Shown here piece by piece: positions 7,224 to 32,476 of a stretch of 48,778 bases of DNA. How positions within the stretch are numbered: position 1 is the stretch's first letter; every line of letters begins with the position of its first letter. The position numbers and the translations under genes are program-made. The DNA comes from an uncultured Gammaproteobacteria bacterium (GTDB taxonomy: Bacteria; Patescibacteriota; Patescibacteriia; CAIXNZ01): NCBI GenBank assembly GCA_964531215.1, contig CAZHFK010000001.1:1-48778 (forward strand). The letters are read 5' to 3'. A model generated the notes under the pieces. That model saw only the letters and a list, made by a program, of their open reading frames with translations, was not told the DNA's origin and ran no database searches.

Positions 7224-7484
7224 ATGCGGAAAGCGAATTATGCGGAAATTTGTGGCTGTATAGGTGGATTTTTCCTGATGCTGTCTCTTTTAGGGGCAGC
7301 CAATATATTTGCACCTTGTAAAATCATTCCGTTTTGGTTGCTGATGATTTTCATCAGCCTGACGGTAGTAGGTGGTGTGCTTGAATACGTATTTGAGCGT
7401 GCCGTTAAAAAACCCAAAAAGCTCCCAATCAGGGAGCAAAAACAAATCACCAAAAGAACTGGCCGGGTTTATATAACCTGGTAA
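7224..7484 (+). CDS. Small two-TM membrane protein
   Basis: SD AAGGAGGAAG upstream of the ATG, two hydrophobic helices, a basic tail, and a terminator at 7501. Confidence 0.6.
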   Translation: MRKANYAEICGCIGGFFLMLSLLGAANIFAPCKIIPFWLLMIFISLTVVGGVLEYVFERAVKKPKKLPIREQKQITKRTGRVYITW

Positions 7485-7500
7485 GTTGCAAAAAGATTAA

Positions 7501-7530
7501 GGGTTCACTCCGTGAACCCTTTTTAATTTT
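7501..7530 (+). terminator. Rho-independent terminator
   Basis: Hairpin GGGTTCAC-TCC-GTGAACCC followed by TTTTT. Confidence 0.75.
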
Positions 7531-7554
7531 ATTAAATTTTTGTATAATTTAAAT

Positions 7555-8391
7555 ATGTTTAATTTTTTACATACTTTTCAGCCACAGCCGATTTTATTGG
7601 AAATCGGCTGGCTTAAGATTTATTGGTATGGTTTTTTAATTGCCATGGGTATTGTTTTGGCTTTTTTAGTTATTTTATATTTGGCCAAACAATATAAGCT
7701 TGATAAAGATCATGTTTATAATCTGGCTTTTTATTTGATTATTTTTGGTTTGATTGGTGATCGGTTATATTATGTGATTTATGCCTGGAATTATTATTCC
7801 CAGAATTTATTGGATATTTTTAAAATCTGGCAGGGTGGGTTGGCAATTCATGGCGCTATGATCGCCGGATTACTGGTTTTGTATATTTATGGCAAAAAAC
7901 ATAATCTAAAATTCGGATTTTTGGCTGATTTGTTTGTGATTGGCTTGCCTTTAGCCATGTTTTTTGGCCGATTTGGCAATTATTTTAATATGGAACTTTT
8001 TGGCTTGCCAACTGATTTACCCTGGGGGATTCCGATAATTGAAGCTAAAAGGCCGGTACAGTACTTAACTGCGACTCATTTTCACCCGACTTTTTTATAT
8101 GAGAGTTTGTGGAATTTAATAATTTTTATAATTTTATTCAGCTGGCATAAACTGCGTTTAAATAAATATAAAACCCCTGACAAAATTCAGGGGTTGGGCA
8201 ATATTGCTTTAACTTATTTTATTTTATATTCCGCAGGAAGGTTTTTAAATGAATTTTTGAGATTGGATTACAGCCCTTATTTTCTGGGTTTACGCTGGGC
8301 GCAGTTTATCAGTTTAATAATAATTATTGTTTGTTTAATACTGATTATTGCCAGAAAATATTATAAATCTAAGACTGTTCCTGCTGACTGA
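7555..8391 (+). CDS. lgt: Prolipoprotein diacylglyceryl transferase
   Basis: Lgt pattern (YWYG, GDRLYY, WQGGLAIHGA, GRFGNYFNMELFG). I prefer ATG 7555 to the TTG at 7540, because TGTATAAT at 7541-7548 looks like an extended -10 box. Confidence 0.88.
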   Translation: MFNFLHTFQPQPILLEIGWLKIYWYGFLIAMGIVLAFLVILYLAKQYKLDKDHVYNLAFYLIIFGLIGDRLYYVIYAWNYYSQNLLDIFKIWQGGLAIHGAMIAGLLVLYIYGKKHNLKFGFLADLFVIGLPLAMFFGRFGNYFNMELFGLPTDLPWGIPIIEAKRPVQYLTATHFHPTFLYESLWNLIIFIILFSWHKLRLNKYKTPDKIQGLGNIALTYFILYSAGRFLNEFLRLDYSPYFLGLRWAQFISLIIIIVCLILIIARKYYKSKTVPAD

Positions 8392-9094
8392 TTTTTCTTA
8401 GTTTATATTCGTTATATAAGACGATTAAGTAGGCAAAAGTTAAAATTACCGTAATAGCCAGATTAAAATAATCAAAACTTCTTAATGCCCGGCCGCCATA
8501 AATTGCCAAATAAAGAATGATTGGTAATTCTTTATAAATTTCCGGAGTTTCAACTTGAAATTTATAAAGCCAGGATAAACCGAAATTAATCACTAAGCCA
8601 ATCGCTAACCATTTTAGAAAATCTTGATATTTGATAGCTTCATTGGTAATTGATAAAAAATTAAGAGAAACAAGTAATGAGGCAACAATAATAATAAATG
8701 TTTTATGATAATTTTTAACATTGGCAAAAAGTTTGAGTTTATGGCTGAAAAATAAGGCAGTAATAAAAAGTAAAGGAATAGTGAAAATTGAAAAAAGTGT
8801 ATTTAAAGTAATTGGCAGGTCAAGCCTGTTTAAAGTTAAAGTACGAATTACATGGGTATCAAAAAAGGGCAGATCAAATCTAAAACCCAGATATTCCAGA
8901 ATAAAAGGTAATATAATAAATAAGATGCCGATTGAGATGCCACGCCAAAAACTTAGATAGTAATTTAAACAAATAAAGCTGATTACAAAGCCGATAAAAA
9001 GTGCCAGAAATAATAATAAAGGATCAGTAATAAATAAAGAACCGATTAAAAACAAAATGTAAAAAATAAACAATATAATGGTAAAGTTTTTCAT
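8369..9094 (-). CDS. Polytopic membrane protein, unknown function
   Basis: 241-aa ORF made almost entirely of TM helices, convergent with lgt. Confidence 0.5.
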   Translation of the reverse strand: MKNFTIILFIFYILFLIGSLFITDPLLLFLALFIGFVISFICLNYYLSFWRGISIGILFIILPFILEYLGFRFDLPFFDTHVIRTLTLNRLDLPITLNTLFSIFTIPLLFITALFFSHKLKLFANVKNYHKTFIIIVASLLVSLNFLSITNEAIKYQDFLKWLAIGLVINFGLSWLYKFQVETPEIYKELPIILYLAIYGGRALRSFDYFNLAITVILTFAYLIVLYNEYKLRKISQQEQS

Positions 9095-22979: not shown

Positions 22980-22981
22980 TA

Positions 22982-23010
22982 TTGACAATTTATCCAATTA
23001 ATGTTAGGAT
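22982..23010 (+). promoter_or_regulatory. Island promoter 1
   Basis: TTGACA, 17 nt, TAGGAT, followed by a ~110-nt leader containing hairpin GCTTTGGTTAG/CTAGCCAAAGC. Confidence 0.5.
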
Positions 23011-23124
23011 GAACTATTACAAATATCATAGCTTTGGTTAGCTTTAACTAGCCAAAGCAATTGAGGTTTGTAAAGGAAAGGAATATTTGAAAACAAAATA
23101 GATCAGAAAAAAGGAGGAAAAACA

Positions 23125-23886
23125 ATGAAAAAGCTTATTACCGTATTTGTGATTTTTACTGTGATGATGATTTTTTGTTCCGCTACTGTGGCCGAAGAAA
23201 GTAATGTTGGCCTGGCTCCGGGCAACCTGGGATTTGTGGCCGGTGGTGGCGAAGGCGGCCAGGCGAGTGATGAGGTGAACGACTTTCAGTTCATTTATCT
23301 TGGCGGTTATTACACTGCCATGCTGAATGACAAGGTGGGGATCCGCGGGACTATGATGTACTTCGGCAACTTTGAGGAGCAGGAAGAGTATTACAGCTCT
23401 TCGGCTTCCGGCTTGTCTTCGGCAGTGGAAACTTACAGGCCCATGATCGGTCTCACCTTGCAAGGTGAGCAAAACGGTTGGTGGGTCTGGAACCACATCT
23501 CTGTGGGCGCTGATCATCAGGAAGACCAGGGCTGGCTGCCAGTCACGATTCTGCATGAAGAGCTGATGTTTGGTTCTGGCTGGTTCTACAATTTTTTGTG
23601 CGCCACTGCCAGGGTCGGAGCTGAGGACTATGAGTCCTATTATCTCCGGGATCAGGTGTACTTTAAGGTGAACAACTGGCTGCACATCGGTCCTCAGGTC
23701 CAGCAAGTCTGGTTTTACCAGACAGACGACGAGGGGGATAATAAGCTGGTTTACGAACCGGCGTGGGGCGGACAAATTAAGTTCGCTGAAAATACCTCTG
23801 AACCCAAGTATTCGTTGACAGTCGGTGCGACCAACGGTGACTTTGTTGGCACGACCTATCATGTCGACGTTTGGATCGCACTTTAA
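23125..23886 (+). CDS. Secreted protein with beta-barrel-like alternating pattern
   Basis: SD AAAGGAGG and signal peptide MKKLITVFVIFTVMMIFCSATVA. Many short amphipathic strands are rich in G/Y/W/F. The 293-aa antisense ORF is discounted. Confidence 0.7.
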   Translation: MKKLITVFVIFTVMMIFCSATVAEESNVGLAPGNLGFVAGGGEGGQASDEVNDFQFIYLGGYYTAMLNDKVGIRGTMMYFGNFEEQEEYYSSSASGLSSAVETYRPMIGLTLQGEQNGWWVWNHISVGADHQEDQGWLPVTILHEELMFGSGWFYNFLCATARVGAEDYESYYLRDQVYFKVNNWLHIGPQVQQVWFYQTDDEGDNKLVYEPAWGGQIKFAENTSEPKYSLTVGATNGDFVGTTYHVDVWIAL

Positions 23887-23905
23887 GTTTTTTTCAAAAA
23901 GTTCA

Positions 23906-23939
23906 AGCTGGGAATGTAAAAACATTCTCAGCTTTTTTA
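23906..23939 (+). terminator. Rho-independent terminator
   Basis: Hairpin AGCTGGGAATG-N5-CATTCTCAGCT followed by TTTTTT. Confidence 0.75.
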
Positions 23940-24042
23940 TTAGATAAAACTAAAGTTTTACAATCCATAGGTTAATTTGCCTTTAGATAAAACTGAAGTT
24001 TTATAATCCGTAGGTCAGGATAAAGCCGAAGTTTTATAATCC
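23940..24042 (+). repeat. Array of three 27-bp palindrome-containing units (operator-like array 1)
   Basis: TTAGATAAAACTRAAGTTTTAYAATCC starts at 23940 and 23983, with a degenerate copy at 24016. It ends 9 nt before the -35 box. Confidence 0.85.
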
Positions 24043-24051
24043 GGGTTTAGC

Positions 24052-24080
24052 TTGACAAAAAAATTTTTTTATGATAGAAT
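24052..24080 (+). promoter_or_regulatory. Island promoter 2 with an A/T homopolymer spacer
   Basis: TTGACA, AAAAAATTTTTTTATGA, TAGAAT. The spacer is 17 nt. Confidence 0.6.
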
Positions 24081-24151
24081 GATAGATCAATAAATAGTTT
24101 GAAATATTTGAATTTTGAAAAATCAACCAAACCAATAAGGAGGAAAGAAAA

Positions 24152-25138
24152 ATGACTGAAGAACTGGAAACCAGAGGCCTTGATGTCAGGGGATTTATTT
24201 CTAAGCACGGAAGATTGGTTTTGCTTCTGTTGCTCTTTGTTCTGCTGATAATTTTGCTTTTCAGCAGATGTGACAGCTGCAGCGGCCGACTCAGTGGCAT
24301 CAAAAATCATCTGCCGTTTATCGGTGATGACGAGACTAAACCAGACGTGGCTGACGGCTGCACTTACTGTCGAGACAATGAAGAGTTTCGTCGACAGGTA
24401 GTTTCTTTGGTCACCACTGATCCTGAGATCGCTGCCTGGCTCAAAGAGCTGATCTGCGAGACTGACTGCAGTGCTCCGCCGCTGGCTAAGAAAAAAGCAG
24501 CCCCTAAAAAGAAAAAAACGGCTAAGCCGAAAACCTGCTCGGATCTGGGGTCTGCCTGGTCGTGTGTTAACGTGCGTAAATATAGTTGCGTGGAAACACG
24601 TAAAAATCTTTGCAAGGGACCCATCCGTTTCCGTTGCGGACGCGGGTGCAGTTTGCGTTCCAAGCCTGACCCTGATCCGCCGGATTCTCCGGAGGCAAGT
24701 GAAGCGAGTTGGGAGTATCACACTTTTGAGTGTGAAGGCACGGAGTGTGATGTGTTGTATTCAGATGTGCTGACGAACTCGCGGGCAACCATTGTTGATG
24801 ACAATGGTCGTCCGATTTCCACTACGGGTTCGGGGCCGGAACGCCATTTTACACCGACTCGGCGAGTGCGGGTTCGCGTCCCGGCTGGTACTCGGGTTAA
24901 CTACGCGAATATGCGTTCAACGAGCGGGCAGTGGGCAGTCTCAACTGACGGCGCTCGGGTTGAAGGCTCGAGTGAGGTGTCGGATCCCAATTTTGGGGTC
25001 AAGCACAACAACCGCCCCTTGCGTGCGAATGACTCGCGTAAAATGCGAGGTGACTGGACATTTGAAGTTGATGCTCCAGAACCGACTTCGGTTAATCCGA
25101 AGTCTGATAATGGTGCCGGCACTTTCAATGTCCGGTAA
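24152..25138 (+). CDS. Type II (signal-anchor) membrane protein with a Cys-rich, Lys-rich ectodomain
   Basis: SD AAGGAGG, TM helix LVLLLLLFVLLIILLF at aa 22-37, 14 Cys, and a KKKAAPKKKKTAKPK tract. The C-terminus carries the WAVSTDG motif. Confidence 0.7.
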   Translation: MTEELETRGLDVRGFISKHGRLVLLLLLFVLLIILLFSRCDSCSGRLSGIKNHLPFIGDDETKPDVADGCTYCRDNEEFRRQVVSLVTTDPEIAAWLKELICETDCSAPPLAKKKAAPKKKKTAKPKTCSDLGSAWSCVNVRKYSCVETRKNLCKGPIRFRCGRGCSLRSKPDPDPPDSPEASEASWEYHTFECEGTECDVLYSDVLTNSRATIVDDNGRPISTTGSGPERHFTPTRRVRVRVPAGTRVNYANMRSTSGQWAVSTDGARVEGSSEVSDPNFGVKHNNRPLRANDSRKMRGDWTFEVDAPEPTSVNPKSDNGAGTFNVR

Positions 25139-25157
25139 AAAATATTTTTAAGCTATT

Positions 25158-25189
25158 AAGCTGGAGACAACAAGTCTCCAGCTTTTTTC
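25158..25189 (+). terminator. Rho-independent terminator
   Basis: Hairpin AAGCTGGAGAC-AACA-GTCTCCAGCTT followed by TTTT. Confidence 0.8.
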
Positions 25190-25345
25190 TTAGATAAAAC
25201 TGAAGTTTTACAATCCTAATCAATTTTTTTTCTTAGATAAAACTGAAGTTTTACAATCCGTAGGTTAATTTGCCTTTAGATAAAATTTAAGTTTTATAAT
25301 CCTGATCAATTTTTTTTCTTAGATAAAACTGAAGTTTTATAATCC
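25190..25345 (+). repeat. Array of four 27-bp palindrome-containing units at exact 43-bp phasing (operator-like array 2)
   Basis: Units start at 25190, 25233, 25276 and 25319. The spacers alternate between TAATCAATTTTTTTTC-type and GTAGGTTAATTTGCCT. Confidence 0.9.
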
Positions 25346-25367
25346 TAATCAAATTTTAATAAAAATC

Positions 25368-25396
25368 TTGACAAAAAAAATTTTTTATGCTACACT
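25368..25396 (+). promoter_or_regulatory. Island promoter 3 with an A/T homopolymer spacer
   Basis: TTGACA, AAAAAAATTTTTTATGC, TACACT. The spacer is 17 nt. Confidence 0.6.
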
Positions 25397-25476
25397 GAGA
25401 CATTAGGTTAAAGACAGAGTCAAGGTCAATAAAGGATCTTTAAATACAAAAAATCAAGAAAAAGGAGGGATTCAAA

Positions 25477-26094
25477 ATGAAGAATTTGGTTATGCTTGCT
25501 ATGTGCGTTATGATGATTGTCTCTTTTGGCTGTTCGGCCATTGAAAGAGAGACGCTTTTGTCGTCTTCGGAGGGACAAACCAATGAATTTCAGGCGACTG
25601 ATCCGGCTCAGGTGACTGAGGCACCGGCGCCATTGCCTGGTTCAACCACCCCGCCAGAGAGTGAGCAGTCCGTGGCTCAGGAGACTGCGCCACAGCCCGC
25701 TCCGGCGACAGGGCCTGTCAGTTTGGAAGGCCAGGGTGGTGGGACCATTGAGATTCAGGCGATTCCCGGAACATGGGGCAAGGCTTTTAAAGCTTTTTAC
25801 ATCACCTGGTTTTCGGACGAGGGGCAGCGGTTTCAGTCTTTCCCGCCGCTCCACACGCTGAAATTCAATAACGTGGCTCCTGGAGAGTATTTTGTCAATC
25901 TCCAGTGGACCACAAAACGCTGGGTAGTGGAGACCAGTCCACCGGTTGACGCTGATCATCGCGCCCTAAACGGCCGGGTCCGCATTCGCATGAATGGCGG
26001 CCCCTGGCACGAGTTTACTTCGGCTGATACTTCTAAGGTGGTTAATCCGGCGACCGGAGAAACCTATTGGAATCTTCGGGTAGTCGTTCCTTGA
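25477..26094 (+). CDS. Secreted (lipo)protein with a Pro/Ala/Thr-rich linker and the island beta-module
   Basis: SD AAAGGAGGG, signal peptide with FGCSA (lipobox-like), linker APAPLPGSTTPPESEQ..APQPAPATGP, then the GGGTIEIQAIP...RWVVETSPP...NGRVRIRMNGG module. Confidence 0.8.
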   Translation: MKNLVMLAMCVMMIVSFGCSAIERETLLSSSEGQTNEFQATDPAQVTEAPAPLPGSTTPPESEQSVAQETAPQPAPATGPVSLEGQGGGTIEIQAIPGTWGKAFKAFYITWFSDEGQRFQSFPPLHTLKFNNVAPGEYFVNLQWTTKRWVVETSPPVDADHRALNGRVRIRMNGGPWHEFTSADTSKVVNPATGETYWNLRVVVP

Positions 26095-26117
26095 TTGATT
26101 TCTGTCAAACAAATTTA

Positions 26118-26150
26118 ATCGGAGTCTTACGAGACTCCGATTTTTATTTT
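26118..26150 (+). terminator. Rho-independent terminator
   Basis: Hairpin ATCGGAGTCT-TAC-GAGACTCCGAT followed by TTTTTATTTT. Confidence 0.8.
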
Positions 26151-26219
26151 ACAATAAAACTTAACAAATAAGATAAAGATGTTTAATTAAGTTATTAAAG
26201 TAACAAAGGCGGCAATAGC

Positions 26220-26759
26220 ATGAAAGAATTTATTGGATTGTTTTTTGTTCTTGTTTGGCTGAGTTTGGCTGGTTGTTTTTTTAAAAATAATTTAGGGATT
26301 ACATCTGCGCCGGTTAGCGAACCGCAAATGATTGTCATTTCCGGACCCTTGTTCGGGGATTCAGCCAGTCAGACGGCTTTGGTTGGCAACTGCCCGGTTA
26401 GCCTGCAAGGCAGTGGTGGCGGCACTATTGAAATAGAGCCGATTCCAGATTCCTTGTATGGTGAAACTTTTAATGCGGGTTATCTGACCTGGTATATTAA
26501 TAAAAATGATCGCTTTTAGCGGTTCTGTCAGGCCGGGCGTTTAATTTTTGATAAAATTTTGCTTGGCGAGTATTTATTGAATTTCCGCCGGAATACAGGA
26601 CGCTGGGTAGTTGAAACCGAGCCGCCGGTTGAAGATGATCATCGGCCGTTGAACGGCCGGCTAAGGGTACGTTTTAATGGCGGCGAGTGGCACGAGTTTA
26701 CTTCGGCAGATACTTTTAGAACCGGCCAATACAGGAATTTACGTTTGGTTGTACCCTGA
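26220..26759 (+). pseudogene. Paralog of 25477-26094 interrupted by a single in-frame TAG
   Basis: ORFs 26220-26519 and 26559-26759 are in the same frame. The TAG at 26517-26519 aligns with the Gln in RFQSF of the paralog. The SD is weakened (AAAGGCGG) and the promoter hexamers are degenerate (TTAACA, 17 nt, TAATTA). Confidence 0.65.
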
Positions 26760-26779
26760 ATTTTTTTCAAAAAATATTA

Positions 26780-26808
26780 AATCGAGACTTGGGTCTCGAT
26801 TTTTTTTG
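26780..26808 (+). terminator. Rho-independent terminator
   Basis: Hairpin ATCGAGAC-TTGG-GTCTCGAT followed by TTTTTTTT. Confidence 0.8.
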
Positions 26809-26854
26809 GGATTTATATTAAGATATATAATGATATTATAAAAAAAACATATGC

Positions 26855-26883
26855 TTGACAAAATAGCTACAATCATATATAAT
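26855..26883 (+). promoter_or_regulatory. Island promoter 5
   Basis: TTGACA, 17 nt, TATAAT. It lies inside the N-terminal extension proposed by the ORF track. Confidence 0.6.
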
Positions 26884-26982
26884 TATAGATCCTGGATAAA
26901 AGTCCAGTTATTCATATTTAAACGGATAGGCGGTTTATTGGCCTTGCAATACACAAGAACTTTGAAAAGGAGGAATAATAAT

Positions 26983-28536
26983 ATGAAAAAAATAGTCACT
27001 ATTTTTTTGCTTTTTGTTTTTTGTCTGCTACTTTCGGCTTGTGCTGTTTCTCATGGCCAGGCTGCTTTGTTTCAGACAACAAAGACACTTGATCAACGGT
27101 TAACCAGCTTGGAAGAATCTCCAAGCCGGTTTAGTGATTGGGTAGCTGATCAGATCATTGAGCAGCGCTTGGAAACCATGACCATTGATTATGACTGCTT
27201 TTCCATGCCTGAATGCCGAGCGCAGGTTGTCCGGGTGAAAAAGGCATTGCCTGAGATTAAAATTAGGATTTATGTCAATGCTATGGAACTTTTTGAGCGG
27301 TCTCGGGAGCTTAATCAGCGTCCGGTACAGCAAAAAATCGCTCAAGCAGTCAAAGCTAATCATCCGAATTATTATCTGCGTGACATTAATGGTAATCGCA
27401 TCCAATACTGGCAGCAGTATGAGATGTACATGATGAATCTGTCCAGTCATTGCCCTGAGTATAATGACAAGCCTTGGTCAGAGTTTTTGGTTGATAGTCT
27501 TTACGAACAGGTTTATCAACCCAATGCCCGCTTGATTGACGGCATTGAGCTTGATAATATGTGGCCGTATGTTTCTTGGATCAATGAGTTCAGAAATGTG
27601 CAAATTGATCTGAATAACGATGGCCAGCCCGAAGATTATTGGACCCTGGATTATTATTGGCGCCAGGGTATGTTTCACTTGATTGACTACATTCGTTATA
27701 AATTCCCAGACGGGTTTATTGTCACTGGCCGTGGATTCCATTACCGCTATAATAGTCGGCTTGACGGTCTGACTTTTGAGCATGTTTTTGAACATGGTGA
27801 ATCCGGTATTCAGGGCGGTAATTTTTCCAAAGTTGATCGTTGGGTTCGCTTGTCACAACCAGGTAAATATTACACCTGGAACGCCAGACAAAACCAGCAA
27901 ACCCATAATATCACTCAATATGTAATTTCACTTTTGGGTGATGGTTACTTTGCTTTAGATGGCGGTGATACCGGTCATGGAGAGTTTACAACTTTTCCCG
28001 GTTACGTCAATTTGGGCCAGGCTATGGAGCCGGCTCGTTATCCGTATCAGGTGATTTTTGACTCTGATCAGTCATTGATTGGTTTGCAAGGAGAGTATAC
28101 TCCCCAGGCCAATAATTGGCTGCGTTTGGATAATGGCCAGACAATATCAATCAGCGCTAAAAAAGGCCAGCAAGTTCAGTTTTACTATCAAATTCTGAGT
28201 GGCCAGTACTGTGCTTCAGAAATCAAATTCACTTATCCTGGCATGCCGGAAAAAGATAAAAATCAGTTTGACGCACATCGCTGGCAGGATGGTGAATATT
28301 ATGCTTTGGCAAATGAAGACGGAGCATTTGCCTGGAGTTATACAGGACCTGGCTATGCTTTATTGACTCATATTGTTATCCGGGATACTAATTTGGGCAA
28401 ACCTTATTTCATGCGCCAGTATGAAAAAGGCTATGTCTATTATAATCCCGGTGACCAGCCTATTTATCTGGAATTTCCAGGTCAAGGAATTATTGAATTA
28501 AAGTCTGGGCAAGGCAAAATAATGCTTAGCCAATAG
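26983..28536 (+). CDS. Lipoprotein, possibly a glycoside-hydrolase-like TIM barrel (GHL15-like); function unverified
   Basis: SD AAAGGAGG 8 nt before ATG 26983. Lipobox LLSAC. The DGIELDNMW, DLNNDGQPED and WRQG pattern is reminiscent of GHL-type putative hydrolases. It ends with TAG followed by a terminator. Confidence 0.7.
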   Translation: MKKIVTIFLLFVFCLLLSACAVSHGQAALFQTTKTLDQRLTSLEESPSRFSDWVADQIIEQRLETMTIDYDCFSMPECRAQVVRVKKALPEIKIRIYVNAMELFERSRELNQRPVQQKIAQAVKANHPNYYLRDINGNRIQYWQQYEMYMMNLSSHCPEYNDKPWSEFLVDSLYEQVYQPNARLIDGIELDNMWPYVSWINEFRNVQIDLNNDGQPEDYWTLDYYWRQGMFHLIDYIRYKFPDGFIVTGRGFHYRYNSRLDGLTFEHVFEHGESGIQGGNFSKVDRWVRLSQPGKYYTWNARQNQQTHNITQYVISLLGDGYFALDGGDTGHGEFTTFPGYVNLGQAMEPARYPYQVIFDSDQSLIGLQGEYTPQANNWLRLDNGQTISISAKKGQQVQFYYQILSGQYCASEIKFTYPGMPEKDKNQFDAHRWQDGEYYALANEDGAFAWSYTGPGYALLTHIVIRDTNLGKPYFMRQYEKGYVYYNPGDQPIYLEFPGQGIIELKSGQGKIMLSQ

Positions 28537-28555
28537 ATTTTGTAAATAAAATTTT

Positions 28556-28592
28556 AAGCAGCCGAGTTTTTCTCTGGCTGCTTTTTTTATTT
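28556..28592 (+). terminator. Rho-independent terminator
   Basis: Hairpin AAGCAGCCGAG-N7-CTGGCTGCTT followed by TTTTTT. Confidence 0.75.
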
Positions 28593-28620
28593 TAGCCTGT
28601 ACAGTTAACTATACATAGCC

Positions 28621-28649
28621 TTGACAAAATTTTCAAAAGATGATAAAAT
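28621..28649 (+). promoter_or_regulatory. Island promoter 6
   Basis: TTGACA, 17 nt, TAAAAT. Confidence 0.5.
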
Positions 28650-28721
28650 AAGATATTCTGTAAACAATAGAAAAACTAGCTGGAAATAACCTGGAAATAA
28701 CTCAGAAAAGGAGGGATCGTT

Positions 28722-29228
28722 ATGATAAAGGTCTTTAAAATTAGTTTTTTATTTTTGATTCTGTTGTGTTTTATGGTCGCTTGCGGGCCGGCTAAAAAGC
28801 CGTCTAATAATGGCACAGGTAATGGCACAGGCACTTTCGATACAGGCGGTCAGCCTAATCCGGCACCTATGCCAGTTACACCGCCTACACCTGCGCCTGC
28901 ACCTGCGTCCGCACCTAATCATACTCCAAAGGATGGTTTGGTGACTATAACGGTCAGTGCCCAACGTGATTTGTCGTATGCCGTGACTGATATCGGCTAT
29001 GGCAAACATTACGCCAGTGGCGGGACAATCACATTTCAGATCACTACCGGTTATCACGCGATTAACGCCACTGACTCTGACTGGAATTTCGCGGTTTCTG
29101 ATAATCGCGCCAATTACCCGTTGTATGTCAATGGGGTCAAATTGTCGCGGGTCAGGTCAGACCCGAAAGGAGGAATGTATTATTTTTTCGTCTATTCGGA
29201 CGGAAGCATTTCTCCGACACCGCCATAA
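28722..29228 (+). CDS. Lipoprotein with a Pro/Ala-rich linker and one island beta-module
   Basis: SD AAAGGAGGG, lipobox FMVAC, linker PNPAPMPVTPPTPAPAPASAP, then the module with WNFAVSD..YPLYVNGV..GGMYYFFVYSDGSI. Confidence 0.8.
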   Translation: MIKVFKISFLFLILLCFMVACGPAKKPSNNGTGNGTGTFDTGGQPNPAPMPVTPPTPAPAPASAPNHTPKDGLVTITVSAQRDLSYAVTDIGYGKHYASGGTITFQITTGYHAINATDSDWNFAVSDNRANYPLYVNGVKLSRVRSDPKGGMYYFFVYSDGSISPTPP

Positions 29229-29245
29229 AATGGCTTTAAAAATTT

Positions 29246-29282
29246 AACCAGGAATAAGTCAAATTGTTCCTGGTTTTTTTAT
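29246..29282 (+). terminator. Rho-independent terminator
   Basis: Hairpin AACCAGGAA-N12-TTCCTGGTT followed by TTTTTT. Confidence 0.75.
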
Positions 29283-29305
29283 TGTTTGATTTTTGTTAAT
29301 AACTA

Positions 29306-29334
29306 TTGACAAAATCATAAAAATAGTATATAAT
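29306..29334 (+). promoter_or_regulatory. Island promoter 7
   Basis: TTGACA, 17 nt, TATAAT. Confidence 0.6.
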
Positions 29335-29396
29335 AAAATATTGTATTTTTTGACAAAAACCATCGGAAATAAACCTAAAAAAAGGAGGAAAGAAAA

Positions 29397-30953
29397 ATGA
29401 AAAAGATGGTAAAAATATTGACAACAGTTTTTTGCTGTTTGTTAATCGTCATTTTGAGCAGTGCTTGTGAGGGGACTGCCGAATCTGGTACCGGCTCTGC
29501 TGATAACAGTGATTCCACCACTTTGACTTTTCAGGTGGAAGGTTATCAGAACCAGCCGGATTTGTACTGCGCTGCCAAGGGAATAGAATGGGAGCCTATC
29601 CCGTTTTCTCAGAACGGCACAGCCAGGCTGGAGGTTAGTTATCTGCCTCAGGACGTATTTTGCAACATTGAAGACGGTCCTGATCAGTGGATAGTTAACT
29701 CCGACGGTGTTTGTCAGGGCTATCACTTTTATGTGAATGACATGGAAGTGACTACCTGGCAGAAAAATGACTATGGCGGCCGCAATTACAGTTTCCATGT
29801 CAAGGATGACGGTCAGGTTGAATTGATCGGTAACAATATCGTGTTTACTGATTGTTCGGCCGGTAGTGAGCCTGGGTGTCAGGTAACTGATTTGCAGGTC
29901 GGTTTTTCAGGCTATCAATCAGGTCAGACTGCGACGCTTTATTGCGCCGGTGATGGGCTTGGCTGGGAGTCTGTTACATTGGATAGCAATGGTCAGGCTG
30001 ACTTGTCAGTTTGTCCGGCGGTTTTCCAGTGTAATGTCAAAGTTGACAACAGCTGGGCTGTTCGTTCGGACGGGGTTTGTCAAGCTTATACTTTTGAGGT
30101 AAATGGCACAACCATTACTTCAGGAGTTCCCAGCTTGTCCGGCGGTCAAAACTATGCTTTTGAACTGCTGGACAGTGGCACAGTCCAACTCTACGGAGAC
30201 AGCCTTGAAGCAATTGACTGCTCTGGTAGCGCTGACGACACGACTTGCGTTGAACCCCTTAGTGTTGAGTTCAGCGGTTACAGTCAAGGCGACAGCGTTA
30301 CGCTTTACTGCGCCGGCAACGGACTTGGCTGGGGTGAGACCAGTCTGTCTGACAATGGCCAAGCAACTTTGACTGGCTGCCCCGGAGTATTCGAATGCAA
30401 CTTGGAAGTTTCTCCGGGTAACTGGGCAGTTCGTTCAGACGGGGTTTGCCAAGCTTACACTTTTGTGGTCAATGGCACAACCATTAATACTGGTATTGCC
30501 GCTTTGTCCGGCGGTCAAAACTATGCTTTTGAACTGCTGGCCGGCGGCACAGTCCAACTCTGGGGCAGTGCCTTGGAGCAAATCGATTGTTCAGGCAATA
30601 CTGGCAATCCTGATATTTTATGCGACCTGGAATTGGTTTACCAGGGTACGTATCAGGATCCGGTTCTGAAAATAACCGGCGGCCGTCTTAGCTGGGATGA
30701 TGATTATCATTTTGGCTTAGACGGTGACACCATGTCGGTTTTGTTGCCTGATATTCATCCGGATACTTATTACGCCAACATGGATATGCTTGGCAATGGC
30801 AGTATCTGGTATGTCAACCATCAGGGCATTTTGGCAGGCAATTCATTGTCGGGCAATGATGTCTGGCTGGATTACTGGGAATCCAATGACATGGGCGGCG
30901 GTAACTTGGTCTTTACCTTGACCGACACCTGTGAAGTGGATTTTCCGGAATAA
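29397..30953 (+). CDS. Lipoprotein built from three Cys-rich tandem modules plus one diverged module
   Basis: SD AAAGGAGG and lipobox LSSAC. The ~122-aa module (..LYCAG.GLGW......NGQA.L..CP.VF.CN....WAVRSDGVCQAYTF.VNGTTI......LSGGQNYAFELL..GTVQL.G......DCSG) occurs three times. Confidence 0.85.
   Translation: MKKMVKILTTVFCCLLIVILSSACEGTAESGTGSADNSDSTTLTFQVEGYQNQPDLYCAAKGIEWEPIPFSQNGTARLEVSYLPQDVFCNIEDGPDQWIVNSDGVCQGYHFYVNDMEVTTWQKNDYGGRNYSFHVKDDGQVELIGNNIVFTDCSAGSEPGCQVTDLQVGFSGYQSGQTATLYCAGDGLGWESVTLDSNGQADLSVCPAVFQCNVKVDNSWAVRSDGVCQAYTFEVNGTTITSGVPSLSGGQNYAFELLDSGTVQLYGDSLEAIDCSGSADDTTCVEPLSVEFSGYSQGDSVTLYCAGNGLGWGETSLSDNGQATLTGCPGVFECNLEVSPGNWAVRSDGVCQAYTFVVNGTTINTGIAALSGGQNYAFELLAGGTVQLWGSALEQIDCSGNTGNPDILCDLELVYQGTYQDPVLKITGGRLSWDDDYHFGLDGDTMSVLLPDIHPDTYYANMDMLGNGSIWYVNHQGILAGNSLSGNDVWLDYWESNDMGGGNLVFTLTDTCEVDFPE
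29520..30640 (+). repeat. Intragenic tandem repeat, period ~366-375 bp (3 copies)
   Basis: The motif CTTTAYTGCGCC occurs at 29937 and 30303. GTTCGTTCRGACGGGGTTTG occurs at 30060 and 30429. Copies 2 and 3 stay highly similar at the DNA level. Confidence 0.85.
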
Positions 30954-30973
30954 TTTTGTCAAAAATAACTTTT

Positions 30974-31004
30974 AAACAGGGAGTTTCGTGCTCCCTGTTT
31001 TTTA
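30974..31004 (+). terminator. Rho-independent terminator
   Basis: Hairpin AAACAGGGAG-N7-CTCCCTGTTT followed by TTT. Confidence 0.8.
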
Positions 31005-31005
31005 C

Positions 31006-31034
31006 TTGACAAAAAAAATACTATATGCTAATTT
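31006..31034 (+). promoter_or_regulatory. Island promoter 8 (A8 run after the -35 box)
   Basis: TTGACA, 17 nt, TAATTT. Confidence 0.5.
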
Positions 31035-31146
31035 GAAATAATTATATAAAATAAAAATATAAGGAAAATTGGTGTTTTTTTAGCACCTTGAAATAAATGG
31101 AAATTTAAGGTATTGAAATTTTCACAGGAAAAAAAGGAGGATCATA

Positions 31147-32421
31147 ATGATACAGAAAAAAGTTTTTTTACTGCTTTTGACCTTTTGCCTTGCCCTGACT
31201 TTTTCTTGCGGCAATGCCGAAGAACACGACGATGACGACGGTTCTGCCGGCGGGGGTGGCAATCTGCCACCGACCAATTTTCGTTTGATTTTTCAGTCAA
31301 ACAATCTTGGTGTCGGTGATATCCTGCACTGCGATGCTCCGGACCTGAACTGGGAGCCGGGCATTGAGTTTAACCAGAATCATCGGGCAGTCATCAATAC
31401 TGCTTCGATCGGCACTTATCTTTGCAATGTACAGTTGCAAAATAATGAATGGGTGGTCTATTCGTCCACCGACCATTTGTTTGGCGCCACAGTAACCAGC
31501 CAGCAAGGCGCTACCGTGCTGAGCACTTACCGTCTAACCGAAGAGGATATCGTCTCTAACGGTATTGGCGGCGGCAACTGGGAATTATGGCTGGCCGATA
31601 GCGGTATAGTGAGTGATTCCGGTGGCGGCGATACTGTTGATCCGGTTGATCCGCCGCCTGTCGAATGCGTTGATCCGGTTGTCAGTACTGAGCTGGAAGT
31701 GGTCATCAAAAGCTATGTCAATTTTGATTTTACGCCACGAGTTCGGTTTTCGGGTGACGGATTTACATCGCGGACAATGACTCGGTCGGCTCCCAACATG
31801 TACACTTACACATACACCGGGGTAGCCACGGACGACTTGTATACGATCAATTTTGAGGATCCGACAACCGGAGAATACCTCTATGACGAGAGCGGACCAA
31901 TGGGGCCGTATGTGGTGATTGTCAATGGTATTCAGGTCAGTGAAATGCTGGATGACGATATTAAGGTGATACTTGACCCTTGCGCCAATGTTATCACCTC
32001 AGTCGTTGACTTGACTTTCACTTTCCTGCCGTCTGACACTACTGCCTATGACGTTGACGTCATTTTTGGCCTGAATTCTTTTTTGGCTTATGGCATGAGC
32101 GCTGACGGCAGCCAGTGGACAACTACCATTTATGACGTGCCCCCCGGCCGTTACGAGTTCAATATCCGCTATCTGACCTCAACCGATCCTGATGTGGCTG
32201 CCTGGCCAGACCATGTCAACGGCGATGTAGCGGTCAATGGCACAGCCATGACCATCTATGATATGATCATTTACTCGGAAACCGTTCCCTGGAACGAACC
32301 GACCGGCACCCCGCTTTTGATGGTCAGAGCTGATTTCCTGATCGATGTTTACCCGGACGGCACTGTTGTCGGCGTGAACATGCGAGACGGAACAATCGGG
32401 ATTATTATCCCATTACCATAA
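31147..32421 (+). CDS. Lipoprotein with an acidic N-terminus and island-type beta-modules
   Basis: SD AAAGGAGG and lipobox LTFSC. The first module is LHCDAPDLNWEP...YLCNVQLQNNEWVVYSS...GGGNWELWLADSGIV. Later segments carry VIVNG and VAVNG strands. Confidence 0.8.
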   Translation: MIQKKVFLLLLTFCLALTFSCGNAEEHDDDDGSAGGGGNLPPTNFRLIFQSNNLGVGDILHCDAPDLNWEPGIEFNQNHRAVINTASIGTYLCNVQLQNNEWVVYSSTDHLFGATVTSQQGATVLSTYRLTEEDIVSNGIGGGNWELWLADSGIVSDSGGGDTVDPVDPPPVECVDPVVSTELEVVIKSYVNFDFTPRVRFSGDGFTSRTMTRSAPNMYTYTYTGVATDDLYTINFEDPTTGEYLYDESGPMGPYVVIVNGIQVSEMLDDDIKVILDPCANVITSVVDLTFTFLPSDTTAYDVDVIFGLNSFLAYGMSADGSQWTTTIYDVPPGRYEFNIRYLTSTDPDVAAWPDHVNGDVAVNGTAMTIYDMIIYSETVPWNEPTGTPLLMVRADFLIDVYPDGTVVGVNMRDGTIGIIIPLP

Positions 32422-32435
32422 TTTCAATACCTTTT

Positions 32436-32476
32436 AAGCCCCCCATCTTTAATAAAGGTGCGGGGGCTTTTTTATT
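32436..32476 (+). terminator. Rho-independent terminator at the right edge of the island
   Basis: Hairpin AGCCCCC...GGGGGCT followed by TTTTT. Confidence 0.65.

Follow-up and report, generated by a model that had tools for sequence, protein, structure and literature searches.

A surface lipoprotein from a Patescibacteria genome with four tandem modules of a new sequence family and a predicted CBM48-like fold

We analyzed a 48,778-nucleotide (nt) stretch of metagenomic DNA from a Patescibacteria genome (contig CAZHFK010000001.1 of assembly GCA_964531215.1, positions 1–48,778; hereafter, the window) with a focus on the gene at positions 29397–30953. Genes of the window are named below by their first position. 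The gene encodes a lipoprotein composed of four tandem copies of a module of about 115 residues, which is best read, according to structure modelling, as a new sequence family with a beta-sandwich fold like that of carbohydrate-binding module (CBM) family 48. We infer glycan binding with a probability of about 0.55: the module would be carbohydrate-binding and the array a multivalent surface glycan binder. This role is the best supported because of the CBM-like fold, the fusions to enzymes, the tandem multivalency on a lipid anchor, and the placement in a glycan-related locus.

The Lipoprotein Gene and Its Four Modules

The protein starts with MKKMVKILTTVFCCLLIVILSSAC followed by EG, and its signal peptide ends with ...VILSSAC24. 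Lgt (PF01790, E = 1e-70) was encoded at positions 7588–8349 of the window, so that both marks of a bacterial lipoprotein are present, a lipobox Cys at the end of the signal peptide and an Lgt enzyme encoded in the genome. Together with the 518-amino-acid (aa) frame, this bears out the lipoprotein call of the first-pass annotation, a reading of the DNA made without database searches. A lipobox was also found at the N-terminus of most homologues, as well as in the neighbouring proteins of the genomic island to which the gene belongs. Orthologues in two related genomes are 84% and 82% identical; the ratio of nonsynonymous to synonymous substitution rates (dN/dS) between the three orthologues was 0.09–0.24 in the forward frame, which indicates purifying selection. 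With its own promoter-like and terminator-like sites (Table 1), 29397 is a real, monocistronic lipoprotein gene under purifying selection.

Self-comparison and a hidden Markov model (HMM) of the repeat units revealed four modules (m1–m4) rather than the three copies initially counted: three Cys-rich modules are followed by a Cys-poor terminal variant. Pairwise local scores against 200 shuffles reached z = 35 for m1/m2, 32 for m1/m3, and 63 for m2/m3, while the fourth unit (aa 409–518) had z = 9.8 with m1 and E = 1e-44 with the module HMM. All four copies were recovered by this HMM with E = 1e-44 to 1e-61. Tandem repetition of the module was thus borne out both by the shuffle scores and by the HMM. 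Counting each module from the Cys preceding strand 1 (pre-Cys), m1–m4 contain 4, 6, 6, and 2 cysteines, respectively; the initial description of a six-Cys module therefore holds for copies 2 and 3 but not for copies 1 and 4, and the LYCAG... motif quoted with it likewise fits copies 2 and 3. Over 48 modules, cysteine columns co-occurred in fixed pairs: C26 with C55 (35 of 35), C49 with the pre-Cys (14 of 14), and C71 with C118 (21 of 21). This co-occurrence therefore indicates three disulfides, by up to three of which a module would be held together.

Sequence Family and Predicted Fold

No Pfam or NCBIfam family was found for the module in scans of the island proteins, and the 48 modules, scanned one by one against Pfam (E ≤ 10), gave no recurrent family, CBM or other, and no match to the CBM48 models PF16561 (AMPK1_CBM) and PF02922 (CBM_48). 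SLH, CWB2, LysM, and choline-binding domains were not matched by the modules in the Pfam and NCBIfam scans, nor were the immunoglobulin (Ig) or fibronectin type III (fn3) families of Pfam. A sequence-profile search of the PDB yielded nothing significant, the best matches being F strands of Ig V domains (E = 0.16). The statement that the family is an unnamed one thus stood in Pfam, NCBIfam, and PDB sequences for the protein and for each of the 48 modules.

The AlphaFold2 (AF2) model of module 2, built from the 48-module alignment, was confident (predicted local distance difference test, pLDDT, 93.6; predicted template-modelling score, pTM, 0.86) and all-beta, with about ten strands. In a Foldseek search of the PDB, 24 of the 28 top matches were CBM48 domains, including those of AMPK beta1/beta2 and SEX4 (3nme); the other four were to the feruloyl-esterase entries 6rzn and 8bbp, which contain CBM48 and were poorly aligned (probability of 0.5–0.6, root-mean-square deviation of 12). 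Among the AMPK beta matches, 6c9g_B had E = 0.024 and a probability of 1.0, while 4yee_N and 1z0m_B had template-modelling (TM) scores of 0.68 and 0.63, respectively, when normalised by the CBM. The CBM48 matches in the PDB shared 14–17% sequence identity with the model, at E = 0.02–0.3 and query-normalised TM scores of 0.4–0.5; the latter values are low because about 35 residues of the module have no counterpart in CBM48. Ig and FN3 domains were absent from the high-probability PDB matches. In BFVD, three of the four matches with a probability above 0.9 were of the CBM48 type, two of them being AMPK/SnRK beta proteins of giant viruses (0.94–0.95, with 0.94–0.99 over the high-probability matches). 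The fold itself is therefore probably not new, judging from the model, although the sequence family is. A structural match to an established CBM, which the first-pass annotation had named as the finding that would remove novelty, was obtained in part: nearly all matches were to CBM48, but with E ≥ 0.02 and without significant profile similarity.

The most conserved residues of the module are W190 (41 of 48 modules), N213 (42 of 48), W220 (41 of 48), G249 (43 of 48), and N252 (44 of 48). A non-significant hhalign register places LYCAGDGLGW on VYLSGSFNNW (W100) and CPAVFQCNVKVDNSW on PEGEHQYKFFVDGQW (K126, W133) of AMPK beta1; by hand, SGGQNYAFEL was aligned with LGTVNNIIQV (G147, N150). In this partly manual and non-significant register, the five conserved residues fall at W100, K126, W133, G147, and N150 of AMPK beta1, respectively. 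W100, K126, W133, and G147 of AMPK beta1 are experimentally defined glycogen-binding residues (PMC6274970). The conserved residues are thus suggestive of a candidate binding site.

A number of results weigh against a sugar-binding, CBM48-like module. In neither PDB nor BFVD did Foldseek return a match for the module 2 model at E ≤ 0.001. A search with PF16561 (AMPK1_CBM) was negative for this genome and for 20 relatives and positive for control genomes. The hhalign comparison of the module profile with residues 78–163 of AMPK beta1 (a sequence verified to be identical to PDB 4zhx_B) was not significant (E = 0.09), and neither was that with an 18-row alignment of AMPK CBMs (E = 0.035, probability of 1.5%). 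CBM48 homology is unproven for this reason, and the module was therefore not filed as a CBM48 member. The correspondence with the AMPK binding site depends on a non-significant alignment, and at the position of K126 the module has Asn. Finally, the lipid anchor already retains the protein at the cell, so a wall-binding domain is not needed for retention.

The failure of all sequence- and profile-level tests against CBM48/AMPK1_CBM, together with Foldseek E values of 0.02 and above and query-normalised TM scores of 0.4–0.5, could also mean that the resemblance is convergent or generic and that the module represents a fold family that is truly new, to which function cannot be transferred from CBM48. 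We consider this unlikely, since the matches were consistent (AMPK beta1/beta2, SEX4, the feruloyl-esterase CBM48, and viral SnRK-beta), many of them had probabilities of 0.9–1.0, no rival fold class appeared at a comparable Foldseek probability, and strands 1–5 of the module follow one another as in AMPK beta1, with matching distances and with both Trp-bearing loops in agreement.

Distribution and Domain Fusions

Among 5.8 billion proteins, a word-indexed search found three homologues of the whole protein. When 1.84 billion cluster representatives were searched with a profile, 32 matches had E ≤ 1e-3, 19 of them with E ≤ 1e-10. Convincing matches were multi-module lipoproteins, lipoproteins similar to 31147, small one-module proteins, M23-peptidase surface proteins, one S8 subtilase, and one GHL15 protein. 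The weak library matches P0023–P0034, except for P0025, P0027, P0031, and P0032, are partial, lie in large repetitive proteins, and were discarded as unreliable. The module is therefore rare, occurring in about 20–25 clusters among the 1.84 billion representatives and in one bacterial family; the sequence family has not been described before, and its range is very narrow. A phylum-wide sample of 401 genomes contained two with a match to the module at E ≤ 1e-5, namely this genome and one other. In the 17 genomes of the order, a module-bearing M23 protein was found in most members of the bacterial family, while the multi-module lipoprotein and the island were present only in this genome and in one congener. 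An orthologue of 25477, P0036, carries the NCBI organism name Candidatus Buchananbacteria bacterium.

Within the bacterial family, the module is most widespread at the C-terminus of a surface protein with an M23 peptidase domain, which is encoded in this genome on contig C21 (Table 1) and conserved across the family (relatives L011–L018, P0013, and P0017–P0019). The module had been presented as a feature of the island; it does occur in island proteins but is found outside as well, on the C21 protein. After the module, proteins of this type end in G-C, a hydrophobic helix, and an Arg/Lys tail; this tail resembles sorting signals such as GlyGly-CTERM or MYXO-CTERM.

Other fusions involve enzymes too. 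P0027 combines the module with Peptidase_S8, and P0031 combines a GHL15 domain with a C-terminal module of the 28722 type. P0031 is 29% identical to the GHL15 protein 26851 (E = 5e-29) and matches 28722 with E = 4e-13; these are adjacent genes in the window, and the fusion provides a Rosetta-stone link between them. Protein P0016 (369 aa) has an N-terminal module similar to that of 31147, whereas its C-terminus (...HAEANKVKVSISRDNDYIKVRVEDNGVGF...) resembles a histidine kinase; this metagenomic open reading frame (ORF) is probably a chimera or a product of misassembly.

Proposed Role of the Module

The module could also be a structural or protein-binding beta-sandwich with no affinity for sugars, such as an Ig-like spacer, an S-layer or coat unit, or a protein adhesin; the array would then form a stalk or coat at the surface of the cell or bind a protein of the host. 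Its C26/W33/C55 pattern (Cys in strands 2 and 5, with a Trp seven residues after the first of them) is reminiscent of the Ig core pin, and the best, albeit non-significant, PDB sequence matches are the Ig strands mentioned above. Tandem beta-sandwich arrays are common in adhesins in general, the position of the module directly before the membrane anchor of the M23 proteins is typical for a stalk, and its CBM48 similarity is borderline only. However, in both libraries Foldseek placed CBM48 above Ig and FN3 domains, which have far more entries, and the module is repeatedly fused to, or encoded beside, glycan- or wall-active enzymes. W33 and W63 are conserved in Cys-less subfamilies and therefore do not merely pack on a disulfide. 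A purely structural or protein-binding module thus appears possible but, on the whole, not likely.

In the favoured, carbohydrate-binding reading, the 29397 protein would be lipid-anchored on the surface of a Patescibacteria cell similar to Candidatus Buchananbacteria, and its tandem array would serve as a multivalent surface glycan-binding protein. It would act beside the lipoproteins 28722 and 31147, probably 25477, 26220, and 24152, and the GHL15 lipoprotein 26851. In the fusion proteins, it would direct enzymes (M23 peptidoglycan peptidases, an S8 protease, and one of the GHL15 type) to their glycan substrate, which could be the wall polymer of the cell itself or that of a host. A more far-reaching version seems doubtful to us: the module would be a disulfide-stapled, expanded CBM48-fold device used by the Buchananbacteria family in general for targeting wall glycans of the host or prey, with which the M23 and S8 peptidases and the GHL15 glycosidase would be equipped, the tandem arrays, varied by gene conversion and copy-number change, would be the host-recognition adhesin of an ultrasmall episymbiont, and the GC-rich island would be a mobile host-range cassette.

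Evolution of the Array

The first-pass annotation had noted that copies 2 and 3 are similar at the DNA level with a period of 366–369 nt and had explained this by recent duplication or gene conversion. The array was not called by Tandem Repeats Finder because whole units are too diverged, while a seed-based repeat finder did report it, including a 34-nt repeat (85% identical) with a spacing of 366. The similarity is, however, confined to the C-terminal half of the module, where the 140-nt tract of Table 1 lies. In a codon alignment of the modules of the window and of two related genomes, L007 and G013 (=L021), m2 and m3 were 44–62% identical over the first ~150 nt of the module, while orthologous modules were 70–98% identical there. 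At nt 181–300, the identity of m2 to m3 rose to 80–90% in the window and was 65–77% in G013, with 77–88% between orthologues. In the L007 orthologue (7341–8906), the C-terminal halves of m2 and m3 were 100% identical over at least 90 nt, which clearly points to gene conversion within the gene in recent times. Lineage-specific substitutions are common to m2 and m3: both L007 copies have QDYIFV where those of the window have QAYTFE/V. The DNA similarity of m2 and m3 thus stems from intragenic gene conversion that acted on one segment of the module, its C-terminal half.

Recent duplication of a whole module is ruled out by the diverged N-terminal halves of m2 and m3, between which synonymous divergence (dS) is saturated, and by the orthologous module clades; of the two explanations offered initially, conversion stood, supported by the mosaic alignment, and recent duplication did not. 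In a tree of modules that took in homologues down to 49% identity, m1, m2/m3, and the terminal module formed position-specific clades spanning distant homologues. The terminal-module clade was sister to the modules of the M23 proteins, the fifth module of P0004 branched with the m1 type, and the m2/m3 modules of P0005 paired with each other. The array is therefore old, given its diverged N-terminal halves and the orthology of module positions across distant homologues; copy number between lineages varies from one to five.

The Module in Neighbouring Island Proteins

The module had been proposed to be common to at least five island proteins. Among all 2937 ORFs of the genome (1.03 Mb), the best non-self matches of the four-copy HMM were the C21 protein of 876 aa (2e-17) and 31147 (1e-5), followed by weak matches to 28722 (E = 0.08), 25477 (E = 0.6), and 24152 (E = 1.1), all of which are island neighbours listed in the first-pass annotation. 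Broader profiles lacking 28722 matched it with E = 4e-4 and its L007 orthologue with 8e-6. In whole-genome searches with a profile lacking the target, 28722 was recovered with E = 2e-5 and its G013 orthologue with 1e-6. The whole mature domain of 28722 aligns with the C-terminal module of P0031 (BLASTP E = 4e-13), and in hhalign comparisons with the 48-module profile, its orthologue alignment had a probability of 95% and E = 4e-8. In the same comparison, modules 1–3 of 31147 gave E = 2e-19, 6e-5 to 1e-4, and 2e-3, respectively, the 25477/26220 family E = 1e-4 (P = 1e-4 to 4e-4), and the C-terminus of 24152 E = 5e-4 (P = 4e-4 to 6e-4). Column shuffles scored 11.2 ± 2.2 (maximum of 19, n = 200) against 28.8 for 25477/26220 (z ~8) and 11.1 ± 2.4 (maximum of 20.2, n = 100) against 26.7 for 24152. 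The in-island negative controls, 23125 and the GHL15 protein 26851, gave E = 0.07 and 0.25, respectively.

Recurrence of the module across proteins is thus above chance in the HMM and hhalign searches, column shuffles, and in-island controls. On these comparisons, membership is firm for 31147 and 28722, as for 29397 itself, and probable for 25477, its paralogue 26220, and 24152, so the proposal of five or more members is partly secured. The AF2 model of the 25477 domain, made from a six-row alignment, had a pLDDT of 65; it is a beta-sandwich in which the distances between strands 1–5 are similar to those in the module, and the Foldseek matches of this low-confidence model were generic ones to C2, Ig, and FN3 domains (TM of 0.2–0.3). 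BLASTP also linked 25477 to the 28722-like protein of L022 (E = 0.002, eight-sequence database), but this alignment spans signal peptides and Pro-rich linkers and was not used.

The in-frame TAG of 26220 (Table 1) corresponds to Gln (CAG) in the intact orthologues of L007 and G013 and in the paralogue 25477, and the remaining frame is intact and collinear; it is either a recent nonsense mutation (pseudogene) or an assembly variant or error. Several island proteins end with short hydrophobic C-termini: ...GTIGIIIPLP in 31147–32421, ...NLRVVVP in 25477–26094, and ...NLRLVVP in 26220–26759. Similar ends (D-[IV]-I-I-D-[LV]-P, IIIP-x-P, VVVP) were found in P0003, P0004, P0006–P0010, P0012, P0014, P0015, and P0025, while the 29397 protein, P0002, and P0005 have none. 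The motif may be a sorting, strand-donation, or assembly signal.

The Glycan-Related Island

The island consists of genes for lipoproteins and secreted proteins and is set between a Wzz-like gene and genes for Wzy_C, a GT4 glycosyltransferase, and a methyltransferase. The order of a 28722-like gene, the multi-module gene, and a 31147-like gene is kept in L007, in G013, and in the distant L022; in L008, the multi-module gene followed by a 31147-like gene is kept. The P0031 fusion gene also adjoins a Wzy_C gene. A radical SAM/SPASM gene adjoins the GHL15/Wzy_C genes on the contig of P0031 (L023), and another one lies near the glycan locus of L007 (17122–18084). GHL families are predicted TIM-barrel glycoside hydrolases, and the GHL15 lipoprotein 26851 belongs to the island.

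This setting suggests one more explanation, that the island proteins are mainly acceptors of protein O-glycosylation by the products of the flanking Wzy_C/GT4 genes. The insertion between the Wzz and Wzy_C/GT4 genes and the Ser/Thr/Gly/Pro-rich linkers at the mature N-termini fit this explanation, which nevertheless leaves the M23, S8, and GHL15 fusions and the conservation pattern of the module unexplained. We regard it as very unlikely to be the main role; moreover, glycosylation is compatible with a binding role rather than an alternative to it.

The island genes (22981–32476) have a G+C content of 41–55%, with up to 0.61 at third codon positions (GC3), while the genome has 32.9% and the flanking Wzz, Wzy_C, and GT4 genes have a GC3 of 0.23–0.32. 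The contigs of L022 and L008, with more distant homologues, have 48–49% G+C. The composition of the island and its presence in only two of the 17 genomes of the order are consistent with acquisition from a GC-richer donor.

Table 1. Features of the lipoprotein gene 29397, its modules, and related genes (positions in the window unless a contig is given).
Feature	Position	Strand	Description
Lipoprotein gene	29397–30953	+	518 aa: signal peptide with lipobox, Ser/Gly/Asp-rich linker, four tandem modules
Signal peptide	29397–29468	+	ends with lipobox Cys24 (LSSAC); read from sequence
Module 1	29520–29876	+	aa 42–160; 4 Cys, without pre-Cys and loop Cys; HMM E = 4e-61 to 9e-63
Module 2	29877–30245	+	aa 161–283; 6 Cys; copy used for the AF2 model
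Module 3	30246–30620	+	aa 284–408; 6 Cys; self-comparison and module HMM
Module 4	30621–30950	+	aa 409–518; terminal Cys-poor variant with DDDYHF insertion; clusters with modules of M23 proteins
Conversion tract in module 2	30053–30192	+	87% identical to 30422–30561, spacing of 369 (140 nt)
Conversion tract partner in module 3	30422–30561	+	pairs with 30053–30192
Promoter-like site, TTGACA-17-TATAAT	29306–29334	+	12 of 12 matches, 63 nt before ATG; consensus scan only
Terminator-like hairpin	30974–31000	+	11 pairs, then T run; 21 nt past the stop codon of 29397
Lipoprotein, 424 aa	31147–32421	+	firm module 31273–31674; weaker module-like regions 31687–31953 and 32143–32370
Small lipoprotein, 168 aa	28722–29228	+	mature domain ~28941–29219, a short Cys-free version of the module
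GHL15 lipoprotein	26851–28536	+	predicted TIM-barrel, glycoside-hydrolase-like (PF14885, E = 9e-14); itself without module
Paralogue of 25477	26220–26759	+	in-frame TAG at 26517–26519; module-like core 26523–26657
Lipoprotein, 205 aa	25477–26094	+	probable divergent module, aligned core 25840–25974
Signal-anchored Cys-rich protein	24152–25138	+	C-terminal region 24836–25075, probably a divergent module
M23 surface protein, 876 aa	G000 contig C21:1583–4210	−	N-terminal domain, fn3, Peptidase_M23, Golvesin_C, module

Significance and Comparison with Known Systems

Patescibacteria make up a large share of bacterial diversity and are attached to other cells, and their surface proteins are mostly unannotated. 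For the module, defined here as a new domain family, the analysis provides boundaries, the pattern of disulfides, a profile of conserved residues, and a confident model, which gives grounds for a family of the Pfam or CAZy type. It is also a testable candidate for glycan recognition by one Patescibacteria lineage, be it of its own envelope polymer or that of a host, and the 29397 gene clearly illustrates how, in an old array of repeats, a segment can undergo gene conversion within a single gene. We rate the significance as moderate, as tandem CBM-like surface lipoproteins and hydrolase-appended CBMs are already well known.

Of the known domains, CBM48, with its beta-sandwich similar to starch-binding domains, is the closest: in the predicted fold, strands 1–5 and both loops with Trp are ordered as in AMPK beta1, CBM48 accounts for nearly all high-probability Foldseek matches in PDB and BFVD, and the module is appended to hydrolases in the manner of a CBM. 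In contrast to CBM48, with which it has no sequence or profile similarity, the module is about 35 residues longer owing to a hairpin insertion and an extended C-terminus, is extracellular and lipid-anchored, occurs in arrays of one to five copies, and may contain up to three disulfides.

SusE and SusF of Bacteroides are lipid-anchored proteins with tandem starch-binding beta-sandwiches, encoded beside glycoside hydrolases. The 29397 protein likewise combines a lipoprotein anchor with tandem CBM-like beta-sandwiches and is encoded near the glycosidase-like 26851 in a glycan-related locus. However, no sequence relationship to SusE/SusF was detected, the Patescibacterium lacks the Sus/TonB machinery, and the genes of the locus (Wzz, Wzy_C, GT4) are of the kind used for biosynthesis, not for utilisation. 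Bacteroides SGBP-B appeared among the Foldseek matches at low probability only.

Cwp19 of Clostridioides difficile consists of a GHL10 TIM-barrel hydrolase and three tandem CWB2 wall-binding repeats and is encoded in an anionic-polymer locus (PMC5765458). It shares with the system described here the combination of a predicted GHL-type glycosidase and tandem non-catalytic surface repeats in a locus of surface-polysaccharide biosynthesis. The families differ, with GHL10 in place of GHL15, and so do the repeat folds, since CWB2 does not belong to the beta-sandwich CBMs. In the window, moreover, enzyme and repeats form separate polypeptides; P0031 is the only case of their fusion. The analogy with Cwp19 suggests that the module could bind the wall polymer of the cell that produces it.

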